Virus record (IMG/VR): IMGVR_UViG_3300007992_000014
Location: 1-25,290 of that record
Length of the DNA stretch: 25,290 bases
Reading direction: 5' to 3' (one strand)
DNA from: a virus
Lineage: Duplodnaviria; Caudoviricetes
The notes beneath the pieces are model-generated. The model had not been told where the DNA came from. It saw nothing but the letters and a program-made list of their open reading frames with translations, and ran no database searches. The stretch's first letter is position 1. Every line of letters begins with the position of its first letter. Of this stretch, positions 1-25,290 are shown piece after piece. A program made the translations under genes and the position numbers.

Positions 1-1164
1 GATTCGGATGTTACAAAAAGAAACGCCAATGGACAGACTCGTTCAGGACTCTATTCTTTGTTCATACCTATGGAATGGAACTACGAAGGATACATTGATT
101 CTTATGGCTTACCTGTATTCGACACACCAAAAAACAAAGTCGAGGATCCACACGGAACAAGAATAACGCAAGGTGTAATAAATTATTGGAACAATGAGGT
201 TGAAGGTTTAAAAGACGATCAAGACGGTTTAAATGAATTTTATAGACAGTTTCCACGTACAACTAAGCACGCATTTAGAGACGAGTCTAAACAATCTTTG
301 TTTAATCTAACAAAAATATATCAACAAATAGATCATAATGAAGATAATAGAAACTCATTAAACGTAACAAAAGGTAGTTTTCAATGGGAAAATAGCCAAA
401 AAGATACTAGAGTTGTTTTTATGCCAAGTAAAAACGGTAGGTTCTTAATAACATGGGTTCCGCCATCTCACTTGCAAAATAAAAGATATATAAAAAATGG
501 AGTTAATTATCCTGGAAATGAACACTGTGGAGCATTTGGTTGTGATCCATATGATATATCAGGTACCGTAGATGGTAAAGGTTCTAATGGAGCTTTGCAT
601 GGTTTAACAAAATTTAGCTTAGAAGAGGTTCCACCCAATCATTTCTTTTTAGAATATATAGCTAGACCTCAAACTGCTGAAATATTTTTTGAAGATGTAT
701 TAATGGCTTGCGTATTTTATGGTATGCCAATATTAGCAGAGAATAATAAACCAAGATTATTATATCATTTTAAAAGAAGAGGTTACAGAGGTTTTGCAAT
801 GAACAGACCTGATAAAAAAATAAATAAATTATCTATAACAGAAAGAGAAATAGGTGGAATACCAAACTCTAGCGAAGATATAAAACAATCTCACGCTTCT
901 GCAATAGAAACATATATAGAACACTTTGTTGGATTAAAGGAAAGTGGATATGGAGATGTTTATTTCCAAAGAACATTAGAAGACTGGGCTCAATTTAACA
1001 TAAATAATAGAACAACACATGATGCTTCTATTAGTTCAGGCTTAGCTTTAATGGCTTGCAATAAACATAGATATTCTCCAGTAAACAAGATAGAGTTACC
1101 CTCGATTGATCTTGGTATAAAAAAATACGATAACAAAGGAACTACATCAAAAATTATAAGTTAA
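1..1164 (+). CDS. terL: Terminase large subunit, C-terminal part with RNase H-like nuclease domain; 5'-truncated by the window
   Basis: Frame is open from base 1 (DSDVTKRNANGQTRSGLYSLFIPM...), so the ORF-track start at 58 is not the true start. Acidic nuclease motifs FGCDPYD, LAENN and THDASISSGLA. Stop overlaps the portal start (TAATG at 1162-1166). Confidence 0.9.
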   Translation, partial: DSDVTKRNANGQTRSGLYSLFIPMEWNYEGYIDSYGLPVFDTPKNKVEDPHGTRITQGVINYWNNEVEGLKDDQDGLNEFYRQFPRTTKHAFRDESKQSLFNLTKIYQQIDHNEDNRNSLNVTKGSFQWENSQKDTRVVFMPSKNGRFLITWVPPSHLQNKRYIKNGVNYPGNEHCGAFGCDPYDISGTVDGKGSNGALHGLTKFSLEEVPPNHFFLEYIARPQTAEIFFEDVLMACVFYGMPILAENNKPRLLYHFKRRGYRGFAMNRPDKKINKLSITEREIGGIPNSSEDIKQSHASAIETYIEHFVGLKESGYGDVYFQRTLEDWAQFNINNRTTHDASISSGLALMACNKHRYSPVNKIELPSIDLGIKKYDNKGTTSKIIS

Positions 1165-3554
1165 TGAATATATATACTAACACCAATAGTGCTTTCCCTA
1201 GTCAAGTAGTGAGTGATGCAGAAAAAGCAAGTATTGAATACGGTAGTCAAGTAGCTATGGCTATTGAATACGAGTGGTTTCGCTCAGGAAGAACTGCTGG
1301 TAATAGATACTTAACTAATTGGAATAATTTTCATGATTTAAGGTTGTATGCTCGTGGAGAACAAAGTATACAAAAATACAAAGATGAATTATCTATAAAT
1401 GGTGATTTATCTTATTTAAATTTAGACTGGAAGCCAGTTCCAATATTATCTAAGTTTGTTGATATAGTTGTAAATGGTATATCCTCAAAAACATATGATA
1501 TAAAGGCATACGCTCAAGATCCTTCTTCTGTAAAGAAAAGAACAGAATACGCTTCTAAGCTACAAGAAGATATGGTTGCTAAAGAATTTTTAGATGGACT
1601 AAAGTCTACGCTAGGTATAGATTTATATCAAAGTCCAAACCCAGAAACAATACCTGAAACTCCAGAAGAATTAGAGTTACACATGCAACTTTCTTACAAG
1701 CAGTCTGTTGAAATAGCAGAAGAAGAAGCTATATCTACTGTTTTAGCTCAAAACAAATACGATTTAATAAGACGTAGAATAAACATGGATCTTACAACAA
1801 TAGGTATTGCTGCTAGTAAAACTAGCTTTAATATAGCCGAAGGTGTTACTGTTGACTATGTAGATCCAGCTTATATGGTTTATTCTTACACAGAAGATCC
1901 AAACTTTGAAAATATATATTACGCTGGTGAATTAAAATCTATAACAATACCTGAGCTTAAAAAAGAGTTTCCCAACATATCCAGTAAAGAACTGGAAAGA
2001 ATACAAAAAATGCCAGGCAACAGATCTTATGTTACTGGTTGGGGTGATTACGACGAAAACACTGTTCAAGTATTATATTTTGACTACAAAACGTATCACA
2101 ATCAAGTTTTTAAAATAAAACAAACTGATCAAGGTTTAATGAAAGCCTTAGAAAAACCAGACACGTTTAATCCACCGGAAAATGATAACTTTGAAAGAGT
2201 ATCTAGGTCTATTGAGGTTTTATATAGTGGAGCAAAAATATTAGGTACAGACACTATGTTAGAGTGGAAGTTGTCAGAAAACATGACTAGACCTCACGCT
2301 GATACAACTAGAGTAGAAATGAATTACGCTTTATGTGCACCTAGAATATATAAAGGTAGAATAGAATCTTTAGTAAGCAAGTGCGTAGGTTTTGCTGATA
2401 TGATACAATTGACTCATTTAAAGCTGCAACAAGTTTTATCTCGTATGGTGCCAGATGGTGTGTATTTAGATATGGACGGACTTGCAGAAGTTGATTTAGG
2501 TAATGGCACAAACTACAACCCTGCAGAAGCACTTAATATGTACTTTCAAACTGGTTCTATTGTAGGTAGATCTTTAACTCAAGAAGGTGAGTTCAACCAA
2601 GGTAAAGTACCTATACAAGAACTTAATAGCTCAAGTGGTCAAGCTAAAATAGCGGCGCTTATACAAACGTATCAGTATTATTTACAAATGATACGCGATG
2701 TAACCGGACTTAACGAAGCAAGGGATGGCACTACGCCAGATAAAGGAACTTTAGTAGGTTTGCAGAAAATGGCCGCTAACGCATCCAATGTAGCTACTAG
2801 ACATATAAAGCAGTCTAGTTTATATTTAACTCTTAGAATAGCAGAGAACATAGCCTTAAAACTAGCAGACGCACTGCAGTTTCCATTAACTAAAAACGCT
2901 TTACAAAACTCTATATCAACATATAACATAAAAACTTTAGAAGAAGTTGCTAGGTTAAATCTTCATGACTTTGGTATATTTTTAGAACTAGAGCCTGATG
3001 AAGAAGAACAAGCGAAATTAGAAGAAAATATACAAGTTGCTTTGCAGAAAGGTGGTATTGATTTAGAGGATGCTATAGACTTAAGGCAGATAAAAAACCT
3101 TAAATTAGCTAATCAAATGCTTAAAATTAAGCGTAAGAAAAAAGCTAAACAAGACCAAGCAGCTCAACAAGCAAACATAAAAGCACAGGCAGATGCTCAA
3201 GCAGAAACAGCAGAAAAAACAGCTATGGCTGAAGTGCAAAAGCAAGAAGCCATATCTGGATCTAACGTTCAGTTTGAGCAAGCTAAGTCTCAATTTGAAA
3301 TGCAAAGGATGCAAATTGCTGCTCAGATAAAGCAACAAGAAATGAAAATACAACATCAGTATGACTTAGAGCTTAAGCAGATGGATATTCAGCAAATACA
3401 ACAAAAAGAAGATAAAATAGAAAACCGTAAAGATCAAAGAACTAAAATACAGGCTACACAACAAAGTGAGATGATAAGTCAAAGGAATAATAAAACAGCT
3501 CCTATAGATTTTGAAGCCCCAAACACTGCTAAGCAGTTTCCAACAGTTTTATAA
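1164..3554 (+). CDS. Portal protein (796 aa) with a long Q/K/E-rich C-terminal coiled coil (P22-like barrel)
   Basis: Directly after terL and translationally coupled to it; size; portal-like segments (LDWKPVPILSKFVDIVVNG, IRDVTGLNEARDG); helical Q-rich C-terminus. Confidence 0.88.
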   Translation: MNIYTNTNSAFPSQVVSDAEKASIEYGSQVAMAIEYEWFRSGRTAGNRYLTNWNNFHDLRLYARGEQSIQKYKDELSINGDLSYLNLDWKPVPILSKFVDIVVNGISSKTYDIKAYAQDPSSVKKRTEYASKLQEDMVAKEFLDGLKSTLGIDLYQSPNPETIPETPEELELHMQLSYKQSVEIAEEEAISTVLAQNKYDLIRRRINMDLTTIGIAASKTSFNIAEGVTVDYVDPAYMVYSYTEDPNFENIYYAGELKSITIPELKKEFPNISSKELERIQKMPGNRSYVTGWGDYDENTVQVLYFDYKTYHNQVFKIKQTDQGLMKALEKPDTFNPPENDNFERVSRSIEVLYSGAKILGTDTMLEWKLSENMTRPHADTTRVEMNYALCAPRIYKGRIESLVSKCVGFADMIQLTHLKLQQVLSRMVPDGVYLDMDGLAEVDLGNGTNYNPAEALNMYFQTGSIVGRSLTQEGEFNQGKVPIQELNSSSGQAKIAALIQTYQYYLQMIRDVTGLNEARDGTTPDKGTLVGLQKMAANASNVATRHIKQSSLYLTLRIAENIALKLADALQFPLTKNALQNSISTYNIKTLEEVARLNLHDFGIFLELEPDEEEQAKLEENIQVALQKGGIDLEDAIDLRQIKNLKLANQMLKIKRKKKAKQDQAAQQANIKAQADAQAETAEKTAMAEVQKQEAISGSNVQFEQAKSQFEMQRMQIAAQIKQQEMKIQHQYDLELKQMDIQQIQQKEDKIENRKDQRTKIQATQQSEMISQRNNKTAPIDFEAPNTAKQFPTVL

Positions 3555-3585: not shown

Positions 3586-4779
3586 ATGTCAGAAGAAGTA
3601 AAAACAAATGAACCTGTTAAACAGGAAGGTGAGTTTAAATTAAAAAAGAAAACACCTAAAAAGTTTGCAAAAACAAGTAACGAACCTGTTAAAGTAAACG
3701 TCAAAGAACCTTTGGTTGAATTAGAATCAGAGATTAAAAAAGTAGTAATACCTAAAAAAGAAGAAGATGCCATTCAAGTCGGAGAAACAGAGGAAGTATC
3801 TGTGGAAGAACCATCCGGAGATAGCACAAAGGTGGGAGAACCTATACAAGAGTCCAACGAGGATGTTGAAGGGTTTTCTCCAATCAAAGAAGTCGAAGTA
3901 AAAGAGGTTGAACAAGAATTAGAAAAAGCTATACAAGAAGAAAAAATACTTGGAAAAGCTTTACCAGAAAACATTGAAAAACTAGTTTCTTTTATGGAAG
4001 AAACAGGTGGAACTATTGAAGATTACACAAGATTAAATGCTGATTATTCTTCAGTAGATGAAAATATATTATTAAAAGAGTATTATAAAAAATCTAAACC
4101 TCATTTAGATGATGAGGAAATAAACTTTATCATGGAAGATAATTTTTCATTTGATGAAGATATAGATGAACAGCGAGAAGTCCGTAAAAAGAAACTCGCA
4201 AAAAAAGAAGAAATTGCAAAAGCTAAAAACTTTTTAGAGGAAACGAAGAAAAAATATTACGACGAAATCAAGTTGAGACCCGGCGTTACTCAAGACCAAA
4301 AAAAAGCTACAGACTTTTTCAATAGATACAATAAGCAGCAAGAAAAAGCAGAGCAACAACACGCAAGGTTTAAAGAAGATACTAAACAACTGTGTAACAA
4401 CGAATTCGAAGGTTTCGATATAAAAGTTGGAGAAAAAAGTTATAAGTATAATATTCAAAATCGAGACAAAGTTGCAGAAAACCAATCAAGTATTAACAAC
4501 CTAGTCGGGAAGTTCCTAGACTCTGAAGGTAATGTTAAAGACACGAAAGGTTATCACAAAGCTATGTACGCCGCTGATAACGTAGATAAAATCGCCGCTC
4601 ATTTTTATGAACAAGGAAAAGCTGATGCCATTAAAGACGTTGTTAATAAATCAAAAAATCCAAGTGATTCTCTAGCTAGAAAGTCTCAAGGTGATGTGTT
4701 TATTAACGGTTTTAAAGTTAAAGCTATTAGTGGTGCAGATTCTACAAAACTTAAAATAAAAACAAAAAAATTTAACTAA
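3586..4779 (+). CDS. Probable capsid scaffolding protein (397 aa, very E/K-rich, helical)
   Basis: Between portal and major capsid genes; low-complexity acidic N-terminus, charged coiled coil and basic C-terminal tip (KLKIKTKKFN), as typical of scaffolds. Confidence 0.72.
   Translation: MSEEVKTNEPVKQEGEFKLKKKTPKKFAKTSNEPVKVNVKEPLVELESEIKKVVIPKKEEDAIQVGETEEVSVEEPSGDSTKVGEPIQESNEDVEGFSPIKEVEVKEVEQELEKAIQEEKILGKALPENIEKLVSFMEETGGTIEDYTRLNADYSSVDENILLKEYYKKSKPHLDDEEINFIMEDNFSFDEDIDEQREVRKKKLAKKEEIAKAKNFLEETKKKYYDEIKLRPGVTQDQKKATDFFNRYNKQQEKAEQQHARFKEDTKQLCNNEFEGFDIKVGEKSYKYNIQNRDKVAENQSSINNLVGKFLDSEGNVKDTKGYHKAMYAADNVDKIAAHFYEQGKADAIKDVVNKSKNPSDSLARKSQGDVFINGFKVKAISGADSTKLKIKTKKFN
3767..3901 (+). 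CDS. Overprinted 44-aa basic protein in the +1 frame of the scaffold gene: MPFKSEKQRKYLWKNHPEIAQRWENLYKSPTRMLKGFLQSKKSK
   Basis: ATG 3767 to TAA 3899-3901; A-rich leader with A at -3; resembles from memory a widespread small phage protein type (MPFKS..QR..(L/M)..N.PE.A..W); scaffold codon usage becomes G/C-ending across this stretch. Confidence 0.7.
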   Translation: MPFKSEKQRKYLWKNHPEIAQRWENLYKSPTRMLKGFLQSKKSK

Positions 4780-4795
4780 TTAAAAACTTAAAATT

Positions 4796-6271
4796 ATGAG
4801 TTTATCTCCACAATTCGGAGGGTTAATCCCTTCACAAGTTCAGGAGGTATTGAACAGCAACTACCTACAATTTAACGGTGGTGGTGGTGCTGGTGATACA
4901 AACACCTTTGCACAACAATACTTACCTGAAGTATACGAACAAGAAGTAGAGCGTTATGGAAACAGAACGTTATCTGGATTCTTAAGAATGGTTGGCGCTG
5001 AAATGCCAATGACATCTGATCAAGTAATTTGGTCTGAGCAAAATAGATTACACATCGCTTACACAGGCGTTGGTGTAGCTGTTGGACCAGGTGCTGGAAA
5101 TGACACAGCTATAACTTTACCAGCTGCACAAGCTAACGTTGTTTCTATTAACGATACAATTGTTATTTTAGATCCTGTAACTGGAGCTGAAGCTAAAGCT
5201 ATTGTACAAGATTCTGGTGCTTACACAGCTTCTGGACTTGGTGCTCAAGTTCTTACTGTACAAACTTTTGATAATGTAGCTCTTATCCCTGCAAACGGAT
5301 GGTCAGCTGCTTTAGATAAAAAAGTATTTGTATACGGTTCTGATTACAGAAAAGGAACTGATACTGTTCAAGGTAGCGTTACTGCTTTAAACCAAGGACG
5401 TATAAGTGTTGATCCTCAGCTTACACAATACTCTAACTCACCAATCATATTAAGAAGCCAGTACGTAGTATCTGGATCTGATATGGCTCAAATTGGATGG
5501 GTAGAAGTTGCAACTGAAGACGGAACATCTGGATACTTATGGTACTTAAAAGCTGAGTCTGAAACAAGACTACGTTTTGAAGATTACCTAGAAATGAGTA
5601 TGGTAGAAGCTGAATTTAACCAAGTTGGTGGTGCTGCAGGAGTTGCTGCAAGCCCAGGATCTGAAGGTTTATTTGCTGCTATCCAAGCTAGAGGTAACGT
5701 ACAATCAGGATTTACAGCTGCTGCTGGTCTTGATGAGTTCGATGCTATTCTTAAAAACTTAGACACTCAAGGTGCTATTGAAGAAAACATGCTTTTCTTA
5801 CAGAGACAAACTGCTCTTGATTTTGATGATATGCTAGCTAGCATCTCTGGTGGATACGCTGGAGGAACTGCTTTTGGTTTATTTGAAAATTCAGAAGAAA
5901 TGGCTCTTAACCTTGGATTCTCAGGATTCAGAAGAGGTTCTTACGATTTTTACAAAACTGATTGGAAATACTTAAATGACGCTTCTACACGTGGTGCTAT
6001 CAATGGTATTAATTCAATTGAAGGCGTATTAATTCCTGCTGGAACTTCAACAGTATATGATCAAATCTTAGGAACTAATATCCGTAGACCTTTCTTACAC
6101 GTACGTTATAGAGCTTCACAAGCTGACGACAGAAGAATGAAGTCTTGGTTAACTGGTTCTGCTGGTGGTGCATTTACTTCAACTCTTGATGCTATGGAAG
6201 TAAACTTCCTATCAGAAAGATGTTTAGTAACTCAAGCTGCTAACAACTTTGTATTATTCAAAGGAATCTAA
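4796..6271 (+). CDS. Major capsid protein (491 aa, probable HK97 fold with an insertion domain)
   Basis: Follows the scaffold; strongly biased codon usage (GCT, GGT, TAC, AAC, TTC) typical of highly expressed genes; size; followed by a GC-rich hairpin. Confidence 0.88.
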   Translation: MSLSPQFGGLIPSQVQEVLNSNYLQFNGGGGAGDTNTFAQQYLPEVYEQEVERYGNRTLSGFLRMVGAEMPMTSDQVIWSEQNRLHIAYTGVGVAVGPGAGNDTAITLPAAQANVVSINDTIVILDPVTGAEAKAIVQDSGAYTASGLGAQVLTVQTFDNVALIPANGWSAALDKKVFVYGSDYRKGTDTVQGSVTALNQGRISVDPQLTQYSNSPIILRSQYVVSGSDMAQIGWVEVATEDGTSGYLWYLKAESETRLRFEDYLEMSMVEAEFNQVGGAAGVAASPGSEGLFAAIQARGNVQSGFTAAAGLDEFDAILKNLDTQGAIEENMLFLQRQTALDFDDMLASISGGYAGGTAFGLFENSEEMALNLGFSGFRRGSYDFYKTDWKYLNDASTRGAINGINSIEGVLIPAGTSTVYDQILGTNIRRPFLHVRYRASQADDRRMKSWLTGSAGGAFTSTLDAMEVNFLSERCLVTQAANNFVLFKGI

Positions 6272-17680: not shown

Positions 17681-20600
17681 ATGAACGAATTAGAATTATT
17701 CACTGCTTCTCTTAAAGACTTAGGTTTATCTAAAGACGAAAGAATAAAGAGAATTAAAGAGTGGAAAATATCAAACAAACCTTTAGATGTTAAAGAGGAA
17801 AAACCAATAGACTTAAAAGTTGAAACTGAAATATCTAAAGAAATTAATAAAGATATAAACACTGTTAAACCAGCAAAGACAAATGTCTCTACAAGTGCGG
17901 ATCCAACTGTGGAGACAGAAAAAGATACGGGATCCAACTCGGAAGTTGCTTTATCGGGATTACCTATTGATCCTATTCCACCGGAACCAATATTTCCTTT
18001 TGCAGATGAAAACGCTGCACCTTTTGAATTCAACCAAACATACACAGCTCCACCTGGTGAAACTTTTGACTATGGCGATGGTGCTTATAAATATACGGTA
18101 GATCCAATAACCTTACAACCAATTTTTTACGCTAAAGCGTTAGGTTCGGATGAGTGGGTTGATACTACCGGTGATGGTTTAGCTACTATGTTGGTTGCAT
18201 CTAGATTAGGTTTTGTTGATGATTTTAATATTGATGATTATATACAAGCCGAAAAAGAAATACAAAAACAAGAACCTAAAAGTGAACTTGACCAACTCGA
18301 AGATGGTTTTGTTATGGAAGATGGTGATAATGTTGGGGACTTAGATGAGGTAGTTGTTTACGCGTTTAAAAAAGACGAAACAGCTGTAGAGAAAAAAATA
18401 AGACTAAACTACGAAAAATATCAAGAAGCAAGTGATGTTACTCTTAAAGAATATTTAGCTATTCAAAATGAAGTAGGTTTAATTAACTTAGACACTCAGG
18501 TAACAGAAACAGTAAAAGCTATTCCAAACTCTAACCTTAGCGGAATGGACTTGAAGATGGCTTATCGATCAGAAGGTACAACTGAAAATGTAACTACCAC
18601 TACGATTCCTTACGAAGAAGAAAGAAATATAGCTATTTCATTTTTACAAAGCCAAAGAGAAGAAACATCTAATGAGGATCCTATAACTGAAGCTGAAATA
18701 AGAGGTGTAACAAAACTGCAAATTGCAAGAGATAAATACACAGCTTTAAAAGATCAAAAAAATAGAGATTACTTAAGTGATATAAGTGACGAAGAAAGAA
18801 AACAAAACCATGATTACGCTCTTGGTATTGAAAGTACTTTTGATCCAGAAATTGAGGAAATCAAACTAGTAGAAGAGTTTGAATCTTTAAAAAATAGCGA
18901 TATAGTTAAAACTGTAAACTTAATGAGTGTTGAGTTACAAAGGGTTTATGAACAAATAAATACTTTAGGTGCAGAAATAAAAGAAAAACAAAAAATTGGT
19001 ATTAATTCTTTAGATGATCAAAATACGTATAATGCTTTAGCAGCTAGTTTTAATAAAAGATCTAATGTATTAAGCGCTGAAAGAAAAACAATACAACAGC
19101 AATTTGACTTAATTAATTATGATTACGCAGAGTTTATTGCTACTAACGAAGTAAAAAGCACTGCTGAAGAAAACTTAGATTACTTAAGAAGAAGTTATAG
19201 TTTATCAGAAAAATATTTTGGAAAACCATCTATGAGTGGAATTTCATTTGGCGGAGGTGGATTAGCGCCTGTTACATTTCCTAATGCCGTAGGGTTTTTT
19301 ACAGATAGTGAACTTGGTATGGAATTGCTTAACACCACCATGAGTTGGGCGCAAATAATACTTCAAACAGTAGCGACTGTTGAAGATAAAACTATAGCTG
19401 GTGCTGGAGTATTAGCACCAGGCTTGTTTATGTCTAAAACACTTGCTCAAGCATTAGGTGATGATTTTTTAGAAGCTCAAGCGGGTCTTAAAGACTTAAT
19501 TGAATTAAGAAAAAATAAATTCGTAAAAGATGTTAATTTTGGTAAAGGACCAAATGGATCTTTTTACTCATTTTCTAATTTTTTATATTTTCTTAGTCAA
19601 ACAGCTGTAGAACAACTGCCTTTTTTTGCTACTGTTGCTATACCAGGAGTTGGCCTTTATTTAGCCGCGTTATCAGCTGGTGGTGATTATTACGTTGATG
19701 AATTTAATAGAGCAAAGGCTAAAGGCGTTGAGTTTGATAGAGAAAAAACTTTAGCAAAATCTTTTGGCTTTGCGCTAGTTGAAGGTTTAGGTAGTGCTTT
19801 ACCTATGAAAATGCAATTCAAGTATATTCAAAACTTAAAACTTGATAAGCAAACTCTTGAATCAGGAGTAGGAGCTTTTTTTAGAGATGTAAGAAAAGCA
19901 GCTCCAGATTTCTTAAAATTAACCGCAGCAGATGTTGGTGGTGAAGTTTTAATTACTCAATTGTGGCAAAATGTTATATCCGGAAGACCTATGTACGAAG
20001 GTTTTGGTGAAGCTGGTTTTACGTCTTTAATATTCTCAACAAGTTTTACAGGAGTTCCAATAATAGCAGGAGCTTCAATGAGAGCTTTATCTGATCCTAC
20101 TACAAACGCAGAGTTTGATCAAAACGTTAGAGATATAGCTGAGTATCAAGAAATTATAGCTAAGAATGAAGGTGGACCAGAACTTGATATCAATACAAAA
20201 ATTTACTATAAAGGTCTTATAGATGATAAATTAAAAAGAAACGATGACATACTAAAAGAAAGAAGTAAATTAATAGATTTAAACCTAGACGCCACTGGTT
20301 GGAAGCTTTATGTCAACTCTATAAATAGACTTACTTATCTTAAAGAACAAGCTATATCACTTAGAGCAGAAGCTAAAAAACCTGGAATAACGATTGATGT
20401 ATCAAAACAAATAGCAGCGCTAGAACTTGAGTTTTCTATAACCAAATCAAACCTAGATGCTTACTTAGTAGCTTTCACTAAAAGGTTTGGATTGCTTTCT
20501 GTTTCTGTCCAAAACGATTTAAAAGATAGAGCTAAAGCAAAACTAAAATCAAAAGGTAATAACAATCCTTCTGATGCTCAACTACTTAATATAGCTGAAC

Positions 20601-23600
20601 AGTTGTACACTGAAGATACTATAAGAGATAATGCAGAAAATGATTTTGCTATGATATCTCTTTTACGTGGAAAAGGAATAAATATAAATTATAGTATATC
20701 AGATACTAATGCGGATGCTTTAGCGGCTTTCACAGAAATGGTTAACGCTAGAATAGCAGATCCAAATATCCAGTTTAGAGGTTCTAAAGTAGATCCTATA
20801 AGTAAAGAAGAAGCAGGTAAAAAAGAAATAGAAGACTTTAAAGCTGGGTTAAAAAACGGTACTGTAAACGGTGTTAATTTGATATCTATTAACGTAAAAA
20901 CAGGTCAACCAGTTTACGACTCTGTAGTTACTATAGAAAATGCTATATTAAATAATAATGGTAGAGTAGGTTTACACGAAGTAACTGGTCATGTTATTTT
21001 TACAGAAGCTTTAGGTACTAATCCAGCTGCTTTTAAATCTTTAGCTGGAACTATATTAACTTATCTTGCTGAATTTGATCCTAAAGCATATGTTAGAATA
21101 GCACGTAAAACCGAGGGCCAAGGTTTTGACGAAGTGTTAACTGTTTTCTTAGAAGAATTAGATAGAATTAATTTTGAAAAAGGTAAAGAGCAAGGTTTTT
21201 GGTCAACCTTAGGTATTGGATTTAATAAAGCAACATCTGAAGCTGTTGGCAAAGATTTTGATTATGACTTTAAAGGGGCTAAAGATGTAGTAGAGTTATT
21301 AAGACAAGTGGCTGAGGGATATAAAAACCAAACTCTAACACAGGATTCAATAGATCAAATAATAAATAGTGATGCTTGGCAAGGTAGTATTGAAGGTCAA
21401 TTAGATGACGGTAGCGTAGGCTTAGATGAGGTTTTACTTACAGGTTCTAAAAAATCAGAATCAATATCACCTGAAGGAGCTAAGTTTTTATCTGAGTGGA
21501 GAAAAGGTTTGTTCACTAATGAAGATCTAGTGTTAATGATTAGACAAGGAGCTGCAAAAGATAAATACCCAGCGGCTGAAGCTTTTGTTGAAGCAAATTT
21601 TGGAGTTATAAAACCAATAATAGGTTACGAAAGAAGAGGAACAAAAGGCATAGATGAAAACGGTGTAAAACAAGCTATAATAGAACTTATCATTGGTGGA
21701 GAAGGTGCTAAGTGGAGTGGCAAAACAACAGCGTTGTTTGAAGAAGGTGAAGGTTATAATCCTGATTTTGCTGTAACAACTTACATACGAAGACTAGGTG
21801 ATAGACGAGATAAAATATATGAAAGAGCTAAAGAACTTGGTGATACTGTATTTGATACTAACGAGTTAGATTCTACCTCAGAGGGTACTGTTGATATTGA
21901 AACAACACAGCCAACTGAACAAGCAACAACAATTGAAGTTGATCCCTTCAAGGTCATGAAAGATTCTAACGTTGATGCCATAGTAGCAGACGTTAAAGAA
22001 AAAATAGAATTATCAGAAATAGATTTAGACAACATAACTTTAAAAGATTTAAAACCTTTTGCAGAGGTTGCTGCTCAGCAAATAGCAGATCAAATAGGTA
22101 TACCTGTTTCACGTATATTAAATCCTAAGGACAATTTACGTAAAGGCGAAGTTACACCTATACAGATGTTTATAAAAAACAATGGCCCAGCTTTACTATC
22201 TATGTTAAAGCAGATAAAAGGTAATGCTGACATACAAGTTGTAAAAACTAAAAGCGGTACAAAGAAAATAGGTGGTGAAGGTAGGAAACTTGGTCAAAAA
22301 TTATTAGATGCTTTTTATATAAAAGGACCTAAAGTTAATAATCAAATACAATACAAGTTAGATCCTAGCAAGTTAAACTTACCTTATTTCTATTCTGTGT
22401 TTGGTATGGATTCGTCTGGTAATATAAAAGACGCTAGATCAGGAACAGCTCAAGCAACTAAAAACTTGATGGAGCTTTTGTCTAGACTTCAAACTTTAAA
22501 AGGAATTGAATTAGCAATTGATCAACAAATAGAAGAAGGCGCTACAACTGAGTCTGAGGGTAAAAGACAAAAAGTACAAGTAAAAAGATCTGAAAGTATT
22601 TCAGTGGAAAGAGACTTTAAAAAAGGAGTATTTGTAGTTCCTATTCCTGATCTAACGACGGTTGTAACTCAAAGAGTGAACAGTAAAGGAGAAACAGTTA
22701 AGGCTAGGAAAGTAGACTTAACAACTCCAGCTGGTATAAAAATAATAAATGATTTAAAAGGTTTTTTTGAACTACATCCTGAGCAAGCTTATTTATTTAG
22801 ATCAGGTATGACAGGTGGGTTTGGTTTTACATTTACAGACACACCTACTTTTGATAAAATATTTCCTGGGTTAGAAACTACAGGTGATTTAACTAGACAG
22901 AAGTATACTGTAATTGGTGGATATCAAAATGGTGCAGCAATAACAAAGTTAGTAGAAGACCCTGATTTAATAAAAAAGAAACAAGACCTGCTAAAAGATT
23001 TATTTTTAAACATACAAAGTTATATTAAGAAAAATCCAGACTCTGCTTCAACTTTTTCGTTATGGCAAATGGAATCTAGTAAAGACCAAAATCATCCAAT
23101 AAGATTTTTAGCACCAACTGTTTTTTATGCTATAGATCCTTTTACAAAGCGAATAAAATTAGATGTAAAAGTGACAGAAGAGCACATGATGCCTAATGTT
23201 CAGGCTGGAAAATCACTTTTAGACGCGGCTATAAAAGGTAAAGTTGAAAGTGAGTTTGATAATATTATATCCAAGTCTTATGGTCAAGGTGGTCTTAGAT
23301 ATTTAAACGATTTAGCGTTAGAGCAATTTGGATTATTAGATAGACTACCTAAAAGTTATTACGATTTAGTTGTACCGCTTTTAGAAGCTGGAAAATTAGA
23401 TTTTTTACCTGCTGGTATGGCGTCTTGGATAAGATACAGTGAAAACAATGTAGCTAATCCTTTTGAATATAGTCTTATTAAGCCTAATATAACGATAGGT
23501 GAATTATTTGTTGGTAAACTAACAGGATTAGATGGGTTGAAAGGAGCTGATTTCCAAGTTGGAATTGACATGGCAGGCATGAAAGCTAATGGTTTAATAA

Positions 23601-25290
23601 CTAGAGTTCTTACAGGTGACATGACAGTTGAAGCTGCTAAAGCAGAGTTTAAAGTTTATCAAAGATTATTAAAAGATAAGGTAGCTTCTTTTAACAGCAA
23701 TAACGTTAATTTTGGTTCTAAAACAAAACTAAGTCAAAGCATATCAGGTCAAATAGAAATACTAAATAACTATGACACAGCTTTAGAAATGTCTAGGAGA
23801 ATAAATCCTCCGGTTATGGGTATATCTGTATTAGATTTTGATGACACTGTAGGTATAACAAGTAGTAAGATAGGTGTTACAATGCCTGATGGAACTTTTA
23901 AAAAGATAGACGCTACTGAGTTTGCTTTAGAACATACTAACTTAGAAGATATAGGTGCTACTTTTGATTTTTCTGAATTTAACAAAGTTATAGGAGGAAA
24001 ACGAGGACCGTTATTTGGTAAGTTGAAAAGAGCTGTAGAAAAATATGGAAATAAAAATGTATTTATATTAACAGCTAGACCTGCTGGAGCTGCACCAGCA
24101 ATATATGCTTGGTTAAAATCAGAGGGCGTAACTTTAATAGAAGGAAACATAGTAGGTTTAGCGAATGGAGCTCCACAAGCCAAAGCTAACTGGATAGTTA
24201 GTAAAGCAGCTGAAGGTTATAATGATTTTTATTTTGCTGATGACGCTATTAAAAATGCACAAGCGGTTAAAGCTGTTTTAGATGTATTAGATATAAAGTC
24301 TGAAGTTCAAATAGCTAAACAAAGCAAGTCAATTGTTTTTACCTCTATAATAAACGATATTATAGAACAAAAAACTGGCATAGAAGCTTATAAGCAATAT
24401 TCCGCTGCTAAAGCTCAAACAATAGGAGCTAGTAAGGGTAAGTATAATTTCTACATACCTCCTTCTGCTGAGGATTTTACAGGATTACTATATAAGTTAT
24501 TAGCAAAAGGAGCTGTAGGAGATGCTCAAATGGCTTTCTTTAAAGATAATTTACTTGATCCATACAATAGAGCTGAAATTCAAATTGGAAAAGCAAAAGT
24601 TTCAGCTGGTGCAGATTTTAAAGCGCTTAAAGCTAAGTTTCCTAAATTACCTAAAAGTTTTAAAAAACAAACAGGTGTAGGTAGATTTAACTATGAACAC
24701 GCTATTAGAGTTTATTTATGGGATTCACAAGGGATGACAGTTCCTGGTTTATCTAAGGCAGATCAAAAACAATTAGTTGATTTTATTAAGGCTGATCCTG
24801 ATTTAAAAGTTTTTAGTGATGAATTAATAACTATACAAAAAGGTAAACCTTACCCTAAACCAGGCAAAAGCTGGGTTGCTGGGACTATAACAACAGATGT
24901 TATAAGTGGAATTAATAAAATAAACAGGGCTCAATACTTACAAGAGTGGCAGCAAAATGTAGATATTATATTTGCACCTGCTGTATTAAATAAATTAGAA
25001 GCCGCGTTTGGGCCTGCTTATGTTAAAGCTTTGAAAAACTCTATTCAAGCTCAAAAAATAGGTAGCAATAGAACCTCTGCCGCTGATTCTATTACAACAA
25101 GATGGTATGATTGGATAAACAACTCGGTAGGTGTTGTAATGTTTTTAAATACTAGATCAGCATTAATGCAAATGATATCTAATGTAAACTTTATAAATTG
25201 GAGTGATAATAATCCTATAAAGGCAGCTAAAGCATTTGCTAACCAGCCTCAGTACTGGAAAGATGTAATGTTTTTGTTAAACTCTCCATA
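17681..25290 (+). CDS. Giant multidomain internal virion / ejection (polyvalent) protein, at least 2536 aa, 3'-truncated by the window
   Basis: ATG at 17681 (MNELELFTASLKDLGLSKDERIK...), 5 nt after the upstream stop; the frame reads open to the window end (...YWKDVMFLLNSP). Absent from the ORF track because there is no stop. Third gene of the ejection cluster. Confidence 0.9.
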   Translation, partial: MNELELFTASLKDLGLSKDERIKRIKEWKISNKPLDVKEEKPIDLKVETEISKEINKDINTVKPAKTNVSTSADPTVETEKDTGSNSEVALSGLPIDPIPPEPIFPFADENAAPFEFNQTYTAPPGETFDYGDGAYKYTVDPITLQPIFYAKALGSDEWVDTTGDGLATMLVASRLGFVDDFNIDDYIQAEKEIQKQEPKSELDQLEDGFVMEDGDNVGDLDEVVVYAFKKDETAVEKKIRLNYEKYQEASDVTLKEYLAIQNEVGLINLDTQVTETVKAIPNSNLSGMDLKMAYRSEGTTENVTTTTIPYEEERNIAISFLQSQREETSNEDPITEAEIRGVTKLQIARDKYTALKDQKNRDYLSDISDEERKQNHDYALGIESTFDPEIEEIKLVEEFESLKNSDIVKTVNLMSVELQRVYEQINTLGAEIKEKQKIGINSLDDQNTYNALAASFNKRSNVLSAERKTIQQQFDLINYDYAEFIATNEVKSTAEENLDYLRRSYSLSEKYFGKPSMSGISFGGGGLAPVTFPNAVGFFTDSELGMELLNTTMSWAQIILQTVATVEDKTIAGAGVLAPGLFMSKTLAQALGDDFLEAQAGLKDLIELRKNKFVKDVNFGKGPNGSFYSFSNFLYFLSQTAVEQLPFFATVAIPGVGLYLAALSAGGDYYVDEFNRAKAKGVEFDREKTLAKSFGFALVEGLGSALPMKMQFKYIQNLKLDKQTLESGVGAFFRDVRKAAPDFLKLTAADVGGEVLITQLWQNVISGRPMYEGFGEAGFTSLIFSTSFTGVPIIAGASMRALSDPTTNAEFDQNVRDIAEYQEIIAKNEGGPELDINTKIYYKGLIDDKLKRNDDILKERSKLIDLNLDATGWKLYVNSINRLTYLKEQAISLRAEAKKPGITIDVSKQIAALELEFSITKSNLDAYLVAFTKRFGLLSVSVQNDLKDRAKAKLKSKGNNNPSDAQLLNIAEQLYTEDTIRDNAENDFAMISLLRGKGININYSISDTNADALAAFTEMVNARIADPNIQFRGSKVDPISKEEAGKKEIEDFKAGLKNGTVNGVNLISINVKTGQPVYDSVVTIENAILNNNGRVGLHEVTGHVIFTEALGTNPAAFKSLAGTILTYLAEFDPKAYVRIARKTEGQGFDEVLTVFLEELDRINFEKGKEQGFWSTLGIGFNKATSEAVGKDFDYDFKGAKDVVELLRQVAEGYKNQTLTQDSIDQIINSDAWQGSIEGQLDDGSVGLDEVLLTGSKKSESISPEGAKFLSEWRKGLFTNEDLVLMIRQGAAKDKYPAAEAFVEANFGVIKPIIGYERRGTKGIDENGVKQAIIELIIGGEGAKWSGKTTALFEEGEGYNPDFAVTTYIRRLGDRRDKIYERAKELGDTVFDTNELDSTSEGTVDIETTQPTEQATTIEVDPFKVMKDSNVDAIVADVKEKIELSEIDLDNITLKDLKPFAEVAAQQIADQIGIPVSRILNPKDNLRKGEVTPIQMFIKNNGPALLSMLKQIKGNADIQVVKTKSGTKKIGGEGRKLGQKLLDAFYIKGPKVNNQIQYKLDPSKLNLPYFYSVFGMDSSGNIKDARSGTAQATKNLMELLSRLQTLKGIELAIDQQIEEGATTESEGKRQKVQVKRSESISVERDFKKGVFVVPIPDLTTVVTQRVNSKGETVKARKVDLTTPAGIKIINDLKGFFELHPEQAYLFRSGMTGGFGFTFTDTPTFDKIFPGLETTGDLTRQKYTVIGGYQNGAAITKLVEDPDLIKKKQDLLKDLFLNIQSYIKKNPDSASTFSLWQMESSKDQNHPIRFLAPTVFYAIDPFTKRIKLDVKVTEEHMMPNVQAGKSLLDAAIKGKVESEFDNIISKSYGQGGLRYLNDLALEQFGLLDRLPKSYYDLVVPLLEAGKLDFLPAGMASWIRYSENNVANPFEYSLIKPNITIGELFVGKLTGLDGLKGADFQVGIDMAGMKANGLITRVLTGDMTVEAAKAEFKVYQRLLKDKVASFNSNNVNFGSKTKLSQSISGQIEILNNYDTALEMSRRINPPVMGISVLDFDDTVGITSSKIGVTMPDGTFKKIDATEFALEHTNLEDIGATFDFSEFNKVIGGKRGPLFGKLKRAVEKYGNKNVFILTARPAGAAPAIYAWLKSEGVTLIEGNIVGLANGAPQAKANWIVSKAAEGYNDFYFADDAIKNAQAVKAVLDVLDIKSEVQIAKQSKSIVFTSIINDIIEQKTGIEAYKQYSAAKAQTIGASKGKYNFYIPPSAEDFTGLLYKLLAKGAVGDAQMAFFKDNLLDPYNRAEIQIGKAKVSAGADFKALKAKFPKLPKSFKKQTGVGRFNYEHAIRVYLWDSQGMTVPGLSKADQKQLVDFIKADPDLKVFSDELITIQKGKPYPKPGKSWVAGTITTDVISGINKINRAQYLQEWQQNVDIIFAPAVLNKLEAAFGPAYVKALKNSIQAQKIGSNRTSAADSITTRWYDWINNSVGVVMFLNTRSALMQMISNVNFINWSDNNPIKAAKAFANQPQYWKDVMFLLNSP
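17873..17939 (+). promoter_or_regulatory. Candidate -1 programmed ribosomal frameshift signal (in-frame GCA_AAG, 5-nt spacer, H-type pseudoknot)
   Basis: Stem 1: TGTCTCTACA (17884-17893) with TGTGGAGACA (17908-17917). Loop GGATCC (17899-17904) can pair with GGATCC (17930-17935) across an A-rich 12-nt linker. Confidence 0.45.
20850..21340 (+). other. Zincin-like metallopeptidase domain within the giant protein (boundaries approximate)
   Basis: GLHEVTGHVIF (HEVTGH at 20975-20992) preceded by beta-strand-like segments and followed by DEVLTVFLEE (21128-21157), a candidate third-ligand helix. Confidence 0.7.
21515..22120 (+). other. Sigma-70-like module (region 2-like segment plus helix-turn-helix) within the giant protein
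   Basis: TNEDLVLMIRQG...AAEAFVEANFGVI...YNPDFAVTTYI resembles sigma regions 1.2/2.1-2.3; QQIADQIGIPVSRI (22076-22117) resembles a sigma region 3/4 HTH. Confidence 0.55.
23090..23460 (+). other. HNH / His-Me-finger-like nuclease domain within the giant protein (boundaries approximate)
   Basis: VTEEHMMP (EHxxP at 23180-23194), then a strand-helix YGQGGLRYLNDLAL, then LLDRLP and a terminal WIRY (23426-23437). Confidence 0.5.
23810..24316 (+). other. HAD-superfamily phosphatase domain within the giant protein
   Basis: All four HAD motifs in order: ISVLDFDDT (DxD, 23834-23848), FILTAR (24062-24079), Lys at 24182 and FYFADD..KN (DD at 24239-24244). Confidence 0.88.

Follow-up and report, generated by a model that had tools for sequence, protein, structure and literature searches.

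The window, a stretch of 25,290 nucleotides (IMG/VR record IMGVR_UViG_3300007992_000014), carries the head and structural module of a tailed phage, including further structural genes past the capsid gene (Table 1). Inside a scaffold-like gene, in its +1 frame, lies a small ORF for a basic peptide of 44 amino acids. The ORF and its translation had been proposed in an earlier, sequence-only reading and were verified here: it begins with ATG and is contained wholly within the larger gene. We refer to the peptide and its homologues as family A, to the surrounding gene as the outer gene and to the site of nesting as the slot.

Table 1. Location of the features discussed in the text.
Feature	Position	Strand or accession	Basis or remark
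Terminase large subunit, C-terminal part	58..1164	+	phrog_6681, E 9.9e-78; context
Portal gene	1164..3554	+	phrog_6547, E 1.7e-147; context
Scaffold-like outer gene, 397 aa	3586..4779	+	Position between portal and major capsid genes; acidic
N-terminal region of the outer protein, housing the slot	3586..3900	+	Acidic, predicted disordered; composition, structure model, selection
Putative initiation region, A-rich and weakly folded	3746..3766	+	A at -3, -6, -12, -13; folding z 0.80
Nested family A gene, 44 codons, +1 frame of the scaffold-like gene	3767..3901	+	ATG start; homology, selection
Probable major capsid gene	4796..6271	+	phrog_13704 'virion structural protein', E 5.5e-86; context
Giant ORF, >2536 aa, leaving the end of the window	17681..25290	+	Size and position resemble the alternative host gene of relatives
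Family A, Cys subtype, in giant structural gene of Elemovirus elemoA_7-9A	L688:4501-4629	NC_055852.1	Unannotated
Family A, Cys subtype, in giant structural gene of Manatee Spring phage	L689:4001-4132	MW202828.1	Unannotated

The nested peptide has a pI of 10.4 with 12 K/R, and contains no Cys and no hydrophobic signal. The 45 outer residues over the same span include 14 D/E (pI 4.05) and belong to a predicted disordered N-terminus, in keeping with the acidic linker described previously; residues 1-100 of the outer protein are predicted with block pLDDT of 35-52 and without secondary structure. The sequence-only reading also remarked on G/C-ending codons in this part of the outer frame. The codons it listed are present, but their enrichment is weak (GC3 15/45 versus 73/352, Fisher p = 0.084). 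An open +1 stretch of 41 codons is by itself unremarkable (about 4% at the local stop density), and it is homology and frame-specific selection, not ORF length, that set the nested ORF beyond chance.

The outer gene resembles a scaffold gene in lying between the portal and capsid genes and in encoding an acidic, helical and partly disordered protein. The label 'scaffold' is taken from position and composition; nothing characterised matches the protein. Searches of Pfam, PHROG, NCBIfam and the PDB gave no match from which to name the gene, the matches at E <= 0.001 were all uncharacterised or unnamed viral proteins, and the predicted model matched nothing in the PDB. The predicted fold is similar to that of an uncharacterised protein of Cellulophaga phage phi18:3 (E 3.5e-7) and weakly to proteins of phi14:2 and cr127_1, hinting at a common head-gene family. 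The product of the capsid gene is 35-42% identical to structural proteins of Elemovirus and Cellulophaga phages, and the C-terminal part of the outer protein shares 36% identity with an Elemovirus 'structural protein'. These phages are the nearest cultured relatives of the window, so the host is likely a flavobacterium.

Homologues of the nested gene

A protein search with the 44-mer returned 75 small homologues at E <= 1e-3 among 82 candidates. Family A is defined by the motif MPFKS..Q...HP..A..W followed by a basic tail, with a conserved core of 23 residues and variable tails. The sequence-only reading had staked the reality of the gene on conservation of the ATG and of the W, P and N residues and on the existence of stand-alone homologues, and on these points it was borne out. 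AlphaFold predicts two short helices for the peptide (residues 6-15 and 17-27) and a flexible tail, with block pLDDT of 85-91 over residues 1-20.

A DNA pattern scan of 4/64 parts of IMG/VR located family A at 119 loci: 71 nested in the scaffold gene (always in the +1 frame), 37 as free short genes and 11 heading longer ORFs. The scaffold gene is lacking at 48/119 of the matches. Annotated stand-alone members are known from Streptomyces phage FlowerPower and from phage 023Pt_psg01, where the gene sits between portal and GroES/head genes; weaker matches occur in cyanophages. Where flanks were available (33 distinct free loci), 10 loci have a gene for terminase, portal, capsid or head assembly within two genes and 8 have a GroES gene, head, packaging or GroES genes together reaching 18/33; lysis genes adjoin three and a DNA polymerase gene one. 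These counts have no baseline control.

Free family A is placed just upstream of a phage GroES gene in L090, L093, L102, L113, L114, L128, L150 and L151, and phrog_32603 stands between the two in six of these eight. The family A core also heads proteins of about 100-680 aa (L087:2501-3385, L126:1372-1929 on the minus strand, L146, L158, L582, L694 and L701), several of which directly follow the portal gene; those scanned had no PHROG match. In a Cys subtype (L230:3159-3281, L266:3100-3234, L533-L652) two conserved Cys flank a Trp, and the pair could form a disulfide or bind metal. In a collection of 185,579 genomes family A was present at just 17 loci, most of them on MAG contigs and three with the phage layout of the window, so family A is not a host core gene. 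Family A at L698:3001 and L703:3001, on contigs from MAGs labelled Cytophagales and Saccharimonadales, lies within back frames that are open for >870 codons upstream and >1000 downstream.

The nested ORF was recognised by its motif in 77/80 related scaffold loci, a set that is biased because one of the six search patterns overlapped the start, and in which two loci are near copies of the window. A diverged form is present in L077; L068 and L079 are outside that count, and the L068 record holds the nested ORF as well. In L068/L664 the nested gene is intact, while the outer frame has a break six codons upstream of the nested ATG, owing either to an error or to a real split.

Selection on the two reading frames

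Selection was measured on 61 distinct genes joined by 60 spanning-tree pairs, after two short gene calls, duplicates and L077 were dropped; the pN/pS values are uncorrected simple counts, from related sequences and non-independent frames. Over codons 1-28, pN/pS is 0.046 in the +1 frame versus 2.9 in the outer frame, and over the tail of the nested gene the +1 value is 0.18. The outer value exceeds 1 because synonymous change is suppressed, and does not denote positive selection. Third-position change in the outer frame drops about tenfold, to 0.012 over the core versus 0.105-0.12 elsewhere; the suppression of outer synonymous sites across scaffold homologues, which the earlier reading had suggested as a check, is thus seen over the nested ORF. 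The flanks are under ordinary outer-frame selection (pN/pS 0.32 upstream, over residues 1-60, and 0.16-0.20 downstream). In a deeper set, codons 10-24, which fall outside the search pattern, gave 0.22 in the +1 frame and 1.43 in the outer frame, with an outer control of 0.17. The nested frame is under purifying selection.

The outer frame is also coding through the overlap. All 78 of the 78 5'-complete unbiased scaffolds read through without a stop for 352-430 codons. The codon for Phe3 is TTC in 68/68 nested versus 12/48 free copies. TTT would make a stop in the outer frame, so the use of TTC in nested copies keeps that frame open. Lysine is encoded by AAG and AAA at 410:261 in nested copies and at 142:259 in free copies, and the AAG preference of the former produces an acidic back frame, with D+E at 27% in nested versus 12% in free copies. 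No excess of promoters was detected (6 found versus 4.3 expected).

Sequence upstream of the nested start

In 54 unbiased loci, A is enriched upstream of the nested ATG at -13, -12, -11, -8, -6, -5 and -3, and its share is 76-96% at -14 to -11, -8, -6, -5, -3 and -2 versus a background by codon position of 36-51%; the p values of this enrichment are inflated by relatedness. The nested start is thus kept within an A-rich context of the Bacteroidota type. A at -3, -6, -12 and -13 favours initiation in Flavobacterium, according to the accessible text of Baez et al. (PMC6847099). Small parts of the window are shared by 24 marine RNA runs, and the four examined proved to be contigs of relatives, bearing no information on strand, start or level, and were left out of the evidence.

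Contents of the slot and a second family

The contents of the slot were surveyed with a C-terminal scaffold motif in 1/64 parts of IMG/VR, which gave 80 flanked loci, 78 of them complete, after 40 short ones were dropped; classes were assigned by regular expression with three corrections by eye. In these 78 unbiased scaffold genes the slot is occupied 42 times by family A and 14 times by a second family, B; two slots contain relics and 20 are empty, pointing to apparent dispensability in some relatives. In a sister clade, B is present in 6 of 71 complete scaffolds and the slot is empty in 65. A family A relic with an internal stop was seen in L267/L681, and a degenerate copy in L225.

Family B is an unrelated basic ORF of 40 aa in the same slot (L226:4766-4885 on the minus strand, L398:5083-5202 and related loci). 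Homology between A and B is undetectable (hhalign probability 0.3%; best cross-HMM E about 0.05). The family B pattern gave 120 matches, 118 nested, one cut by a contig end and one free, and free copies exist in unrelated large phages; the protein database yielded just two B proteins, and GenBank phages yielded none. Within family B, pN/pS is 0.17 in the +1 frame versus 1.9 in the outer frame, over a span that includes codons fixed by the pattern.

The slot is exchangeable between A and B. L265, which carries A, and L226, which carries B, match in their flanks and are 83% identical at the C-terminus; their sequences part at the nested ATG. In a quick tree of 110 C-terminal domains the slot states interleave with a minimum of 23 changes, and its starred branches force at least six changes for A and at least five for B. 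An AU test on 30 rows rejects a single B clade (p 3e-5 without a distant member), although the rows were picked after the first tree and recombination could touch the C-terminal domain too.

Family A in a giant outer gene

Family A also occurs, again in the +1 frame, in the middle of genes whose products exceed 1000 aa and give no match to the scaffold profile. Nine such sequences gave pN/pS of 0.22 in the +1 frame versus 0.96 in the outer frame, and 0.32 versus 1.05 outside the pattern. Of the 16 sister-clade records whose scaffold slot is empty, 12 have A in the giant gene, including 7/7 that are at least 90% complete; the four records without a family A match are 40-67% complete. Two near-complete empty-slot records, G001 and G002, gave neither A nor B. 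The search missed a known copy in G038, and such absences are therefore soft. No record has more than one A match, A is in 0/6 B-slot records, B was found in 6/41 records searched, all six of them B-slot, and none of the 46 records searched has both.

The same A subtypes are found in both outer genes, and scaffold copies of the Cys type score higher against giant-gene copies than against other scaffold subtypes. With a Cys-type query, 68 Elemovirus records gave a match. The copy of elemoA_7-9A is a 42-codon ORF at codon 1221 of the 'structural protein' gp21, at an offset of +1 (from 54224 of the RefSeq record). The giant ORF of the window resembles this alternative host gene in size and position. 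Its N-terminus is acidic and proline-rich; the part inside the window has no match to A or B, and no second copy of either is present in the six frames of the window.

Discussion

Taken together, these data make it fairly likely that the window carries a conserved +1 gene in a predicted disordered acidic linker, read from its own ATG on late head mRNA, captured ready-made and predicted to encode a basic two-helix peptide that would bind nucleic acid in head assembly.

With regard to function, our tentative choice, held at slightly under even odds, is a nucleic-acid-binding peptide of the virion or of its assembly. Late nucleic-acid binding is favoured because of the charge, the size and the recurring head-module setting. 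The window peptide has no match in Pfam, PHROGs or NCBIfam; Foldseek, VIA-align (best Z 2.6) and a PDB sequence search yielded nothing meaningful, and no structure or family match supports DNA binding. The PDB sequence matches proved to be designed repeat proteins, reached through a short repeated motif, and were rejected. The accessible text of PMC7077304 contains no virion proteomics.

A late action on the ribosome or on translation, ArfA-like or hibernation-like, with A and B as functional substitutes, is an unlikely but serious reading. Weak matches to DUF7230 are seen in 5/14 B members (best E 0.0019, below the cut-off), and B has Atlas neighbours at 0.92 whose clusters include ArfA in 23% of their members and DUF7230 in 20%. 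Family A is carried by phages of very different hosts, which would fit a universal target. According to the accessible text of PMC12753301, a pelagiphage gene with an ArfA domain shows high expression at both early and late times. However, the Pfam ArfA family matches 0/14 B members, B's Atlas recognition score (2034) falls short of the reliability line, family A has no ribosome-related match, and the gene of the window is A, not B. The mutual exclusion of A and B from single records would suit functional substitutes, yet it is partly a consequence of there being a single slot.

A role of the A core in capsid targeting or as an assembly adaptor, with a head protein or a GroES-type chaperone as its binding partner in place of nucleic acid, is in our view distinctly unlikely. 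Such a role would agree with a 25-residue core heading longer proteins in 11/119 matches, several directly after the portal gene, with the GroES neighbours of free copies, and with the invariant residues of family A, which include P, W and Q and are atypical of a mere polycation. The accompanying portals, however, are of different PHROG families (phrog_6547 here, phrog_1216 at free loci), and a single conserved protein partner is therefore hard to name. Nucleic-acid binding remains our preferred assignment.

Regarding origin, we consider the nested gene to be, with good probability, a captured and exchangeable cassette. According to the distribution criterion, as given in the accessible text of Sabath et al. 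(PMC3494269), the more widely distributed frame is the older one, and the wider distribution of the small gene thus marks it as the older frame. The sequence-only reading described the gene as overprinted; in the sense of a new frame born in the scaffold gene this did not hold up, since the small gene is far wider and the outer residues over the slot are derived. Free homologues occur in unrelated phages, where a gene born de novo would have none outside the clade of its host gene. The nested gene is probably not newly overprinted in the scaffold gene.

The converse history, in which family A originated de novo within one of this phage group's virion genes and only afterwards became free-standing elsewhere, is very unlikely in our judgement. 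The diversity of the nested copies, which form several subtypes, would agree with it, as would the Cys subtype, classed as nested in 115/120 pattern matches (one of which, L589, is a chance match of 6 codons), and the fact that Glu-rich linkers yield Lys-rich +1 frames by composition. Against this, phages that infect Streptomyces, cyanobacteria and other hosts carry free copies, whereas nested copies are confined to a narrower set; empty-slot relatives have nothing equivalent to the outer residues over the slot; and family B is likewise free in unrelated large phages.

Capture would have required an intermediate. The back frame of free copies contains a mean of 5.5 stops and is stop-free in 0/48, so direct insertion would truncate the outer protein; no capture event was observed among the 48. 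In L526 (1959-2341, minus strand), an upstream gene of 61 codons shares its final 29 nt with a free family B gene in a +1 relation, with a further small basic ORF of 44 aa just upstream, and this kind of end overlap suggests one route of capture.

As to how the +1 frame is reached, the nested gene very probably uses its own start codon. A programmed +1 frameshift that would fuse the N-terminus of the scaffold to a basic tail is highly improbable, even though the +1 frame is open from 3749 in the window and the string CCT AAA AAA G lies just upstream, both as the sequence-only reading had observed. Across the family, a CCN AAA AAA G string is present upstream in only 3/79 close and 1/54 unbiased loci, with the ATG kept, and the +1 frame is open for just 1-9 codons before the ATG in 50/54 loci. 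The rarity of the string and the short upstream opening make independent initiation the likely route. Furthermore, the outer codon bearing the AT of the nested start is GAT or AAT in 54/54 unbiased loci, and the nested ORF and the free genes begin at the same Met. Three single-member database proteins (P0001-P0003) do join both frames, though in the opposite order, starting in the nested frame and continuing in scaffold or mixed frames; they are probably indel errors.

The prospect that the ORF is an untranslated by-product of outer-protein conservation or of an RNA or DNA element is negligible, as variation gathers at +1 third positions, the opposite of outer-driven conservation, folding over the overlap is unremarkable (z -0.64) and does not account for the conservation, and annotated stand-alone genes are strongly similar to the nested ORF. 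The nested ORF is almost certainly a real, translated gene.

We propose that a small phage gene arrived at the slot ready-made rather than being born there. A Lys-rich gene with AAG codons reads as Glu-rich one base back, and a disordered acidic linker would tolerate such a sequence; the roughly five stops of the back frame would be purged by synonymous change, leaving a portable linker cassette. Recombination may then move the cassette between linkers or swap in another. Translation would start at the cassette's own ATG on late head mRNA, and the basic two-helix peptide is predicted to bind nucleic acid during head assembly. On balance, we also lean towards a broader view in which the disordered acidic linkers of virion genes serve as exchangeable parking slots: at least two unrelated, stop-purged basic families would form portable +1 cassettes, about one per genome, that take each other's place and move between non-homologous outer genes, with the back frame supplying the linker.

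If A and B are functional substitutes, they would represent a late function that has escaped annotation in a marine phage group that is very abundant; about 11,000 IMG/VR stretches (stretches, not genomes) are estimated to carry the scaffold motif. The nested genes are unannotated, including in the two GenBank/RefSeq records inspected. Because Elemovirus is cultured, has a known Flavobacterium host and carries a nested copy whose start can be removed without altering the outer protein, expression and function are testable. Full nesting in phages is usually ascribed to de novo overprinting or to a fixed partnership such as Rz/Rz1. The present case suggests a third route, in which disordered linkers capture small genes that already exist and exchange them, aided by the Lys/Glu frame relation. 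A literature search covering main texts, chiefly from outside the subscription journals, found no published description of family A or of this arrangement.

Several known families and systems invite comparison. Phrog_1375 and DUF3008 (PF11450) are likewise small and basic, and weak phrog_1375 matches (E 8e-4 to 0.016) were obtained for 5/15 small proteins tested, all of family A; the nearest Pfam-bearing Atlas cluster to family A in this comparison is at 0.82. The window peptide itself matches neither, 0/44 alignment members match DUF3008 at E <= 0.1, and a literature search for 'DUF3008' found no paper. The likeness to ArfA (PF03889) and DUF7230 (PF23876) concerns B only and lies in a short basic C-terminal motif of the K..KK.Y.RK.KHK type. 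Family B is below the Pfam gathering score (17 bits for DUF7230 with the first member, against a cut-off of 27; ArfA 0/14), and whereas ArfA carries a GKGS-type motif, family B does not. PhiX174 J and the internal proteins of T4 are small, basic DNA-packaging or internal virion peptides encoded among head genes. Family A resembles them in size, charge and setting, with no match in sequence or structure.

De novo overprinted viral genes, as described in the accessible text of PMC3494269, are likewise dual-coding, with synonymous change suppressed in one frame. In contrast to them, the inner gene here is the wider, more constrained and thus older frame, and the outer linker is the novel sequence.

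The closest layout is that of lambda Rz1 inside Rz, where, as for nested family A, a larger phage gene fully encloses a small one in its +1 frame. An embedded o-spanin (Rz1), which would have a lipoprotein signal with a lipobox Cys and lie within the gene of an inner-membrane i-spanin in a lysis cassette, was considered as the identity of the 44-mer and rejected, given the peptide's lack of Cys and of a hydrophobic signal and the location of the outer gene between the portal and capsid genes. In the accessible text of Kongari et al. (PMC6139136), spanins occur in separated, overlapped and embedded layouts, one outer family may carry several inner families, and no family was found that combines embedded members with overlapped or separated ones. 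Rz and Rz1 make up a single lysis complex, whereas family A has no known partnership with its outer protein. Unlike the spanin families, family A is found free-standing, nested in the scaffold-like gene and nested in a giant gene unrelated to it, and its slot may be empty. The nested layout itself is thus known from Rz1 in Rz, and what appears to be new is a single family that is free in some phages, nested in two unrelated outer genes in others, and replaceable.
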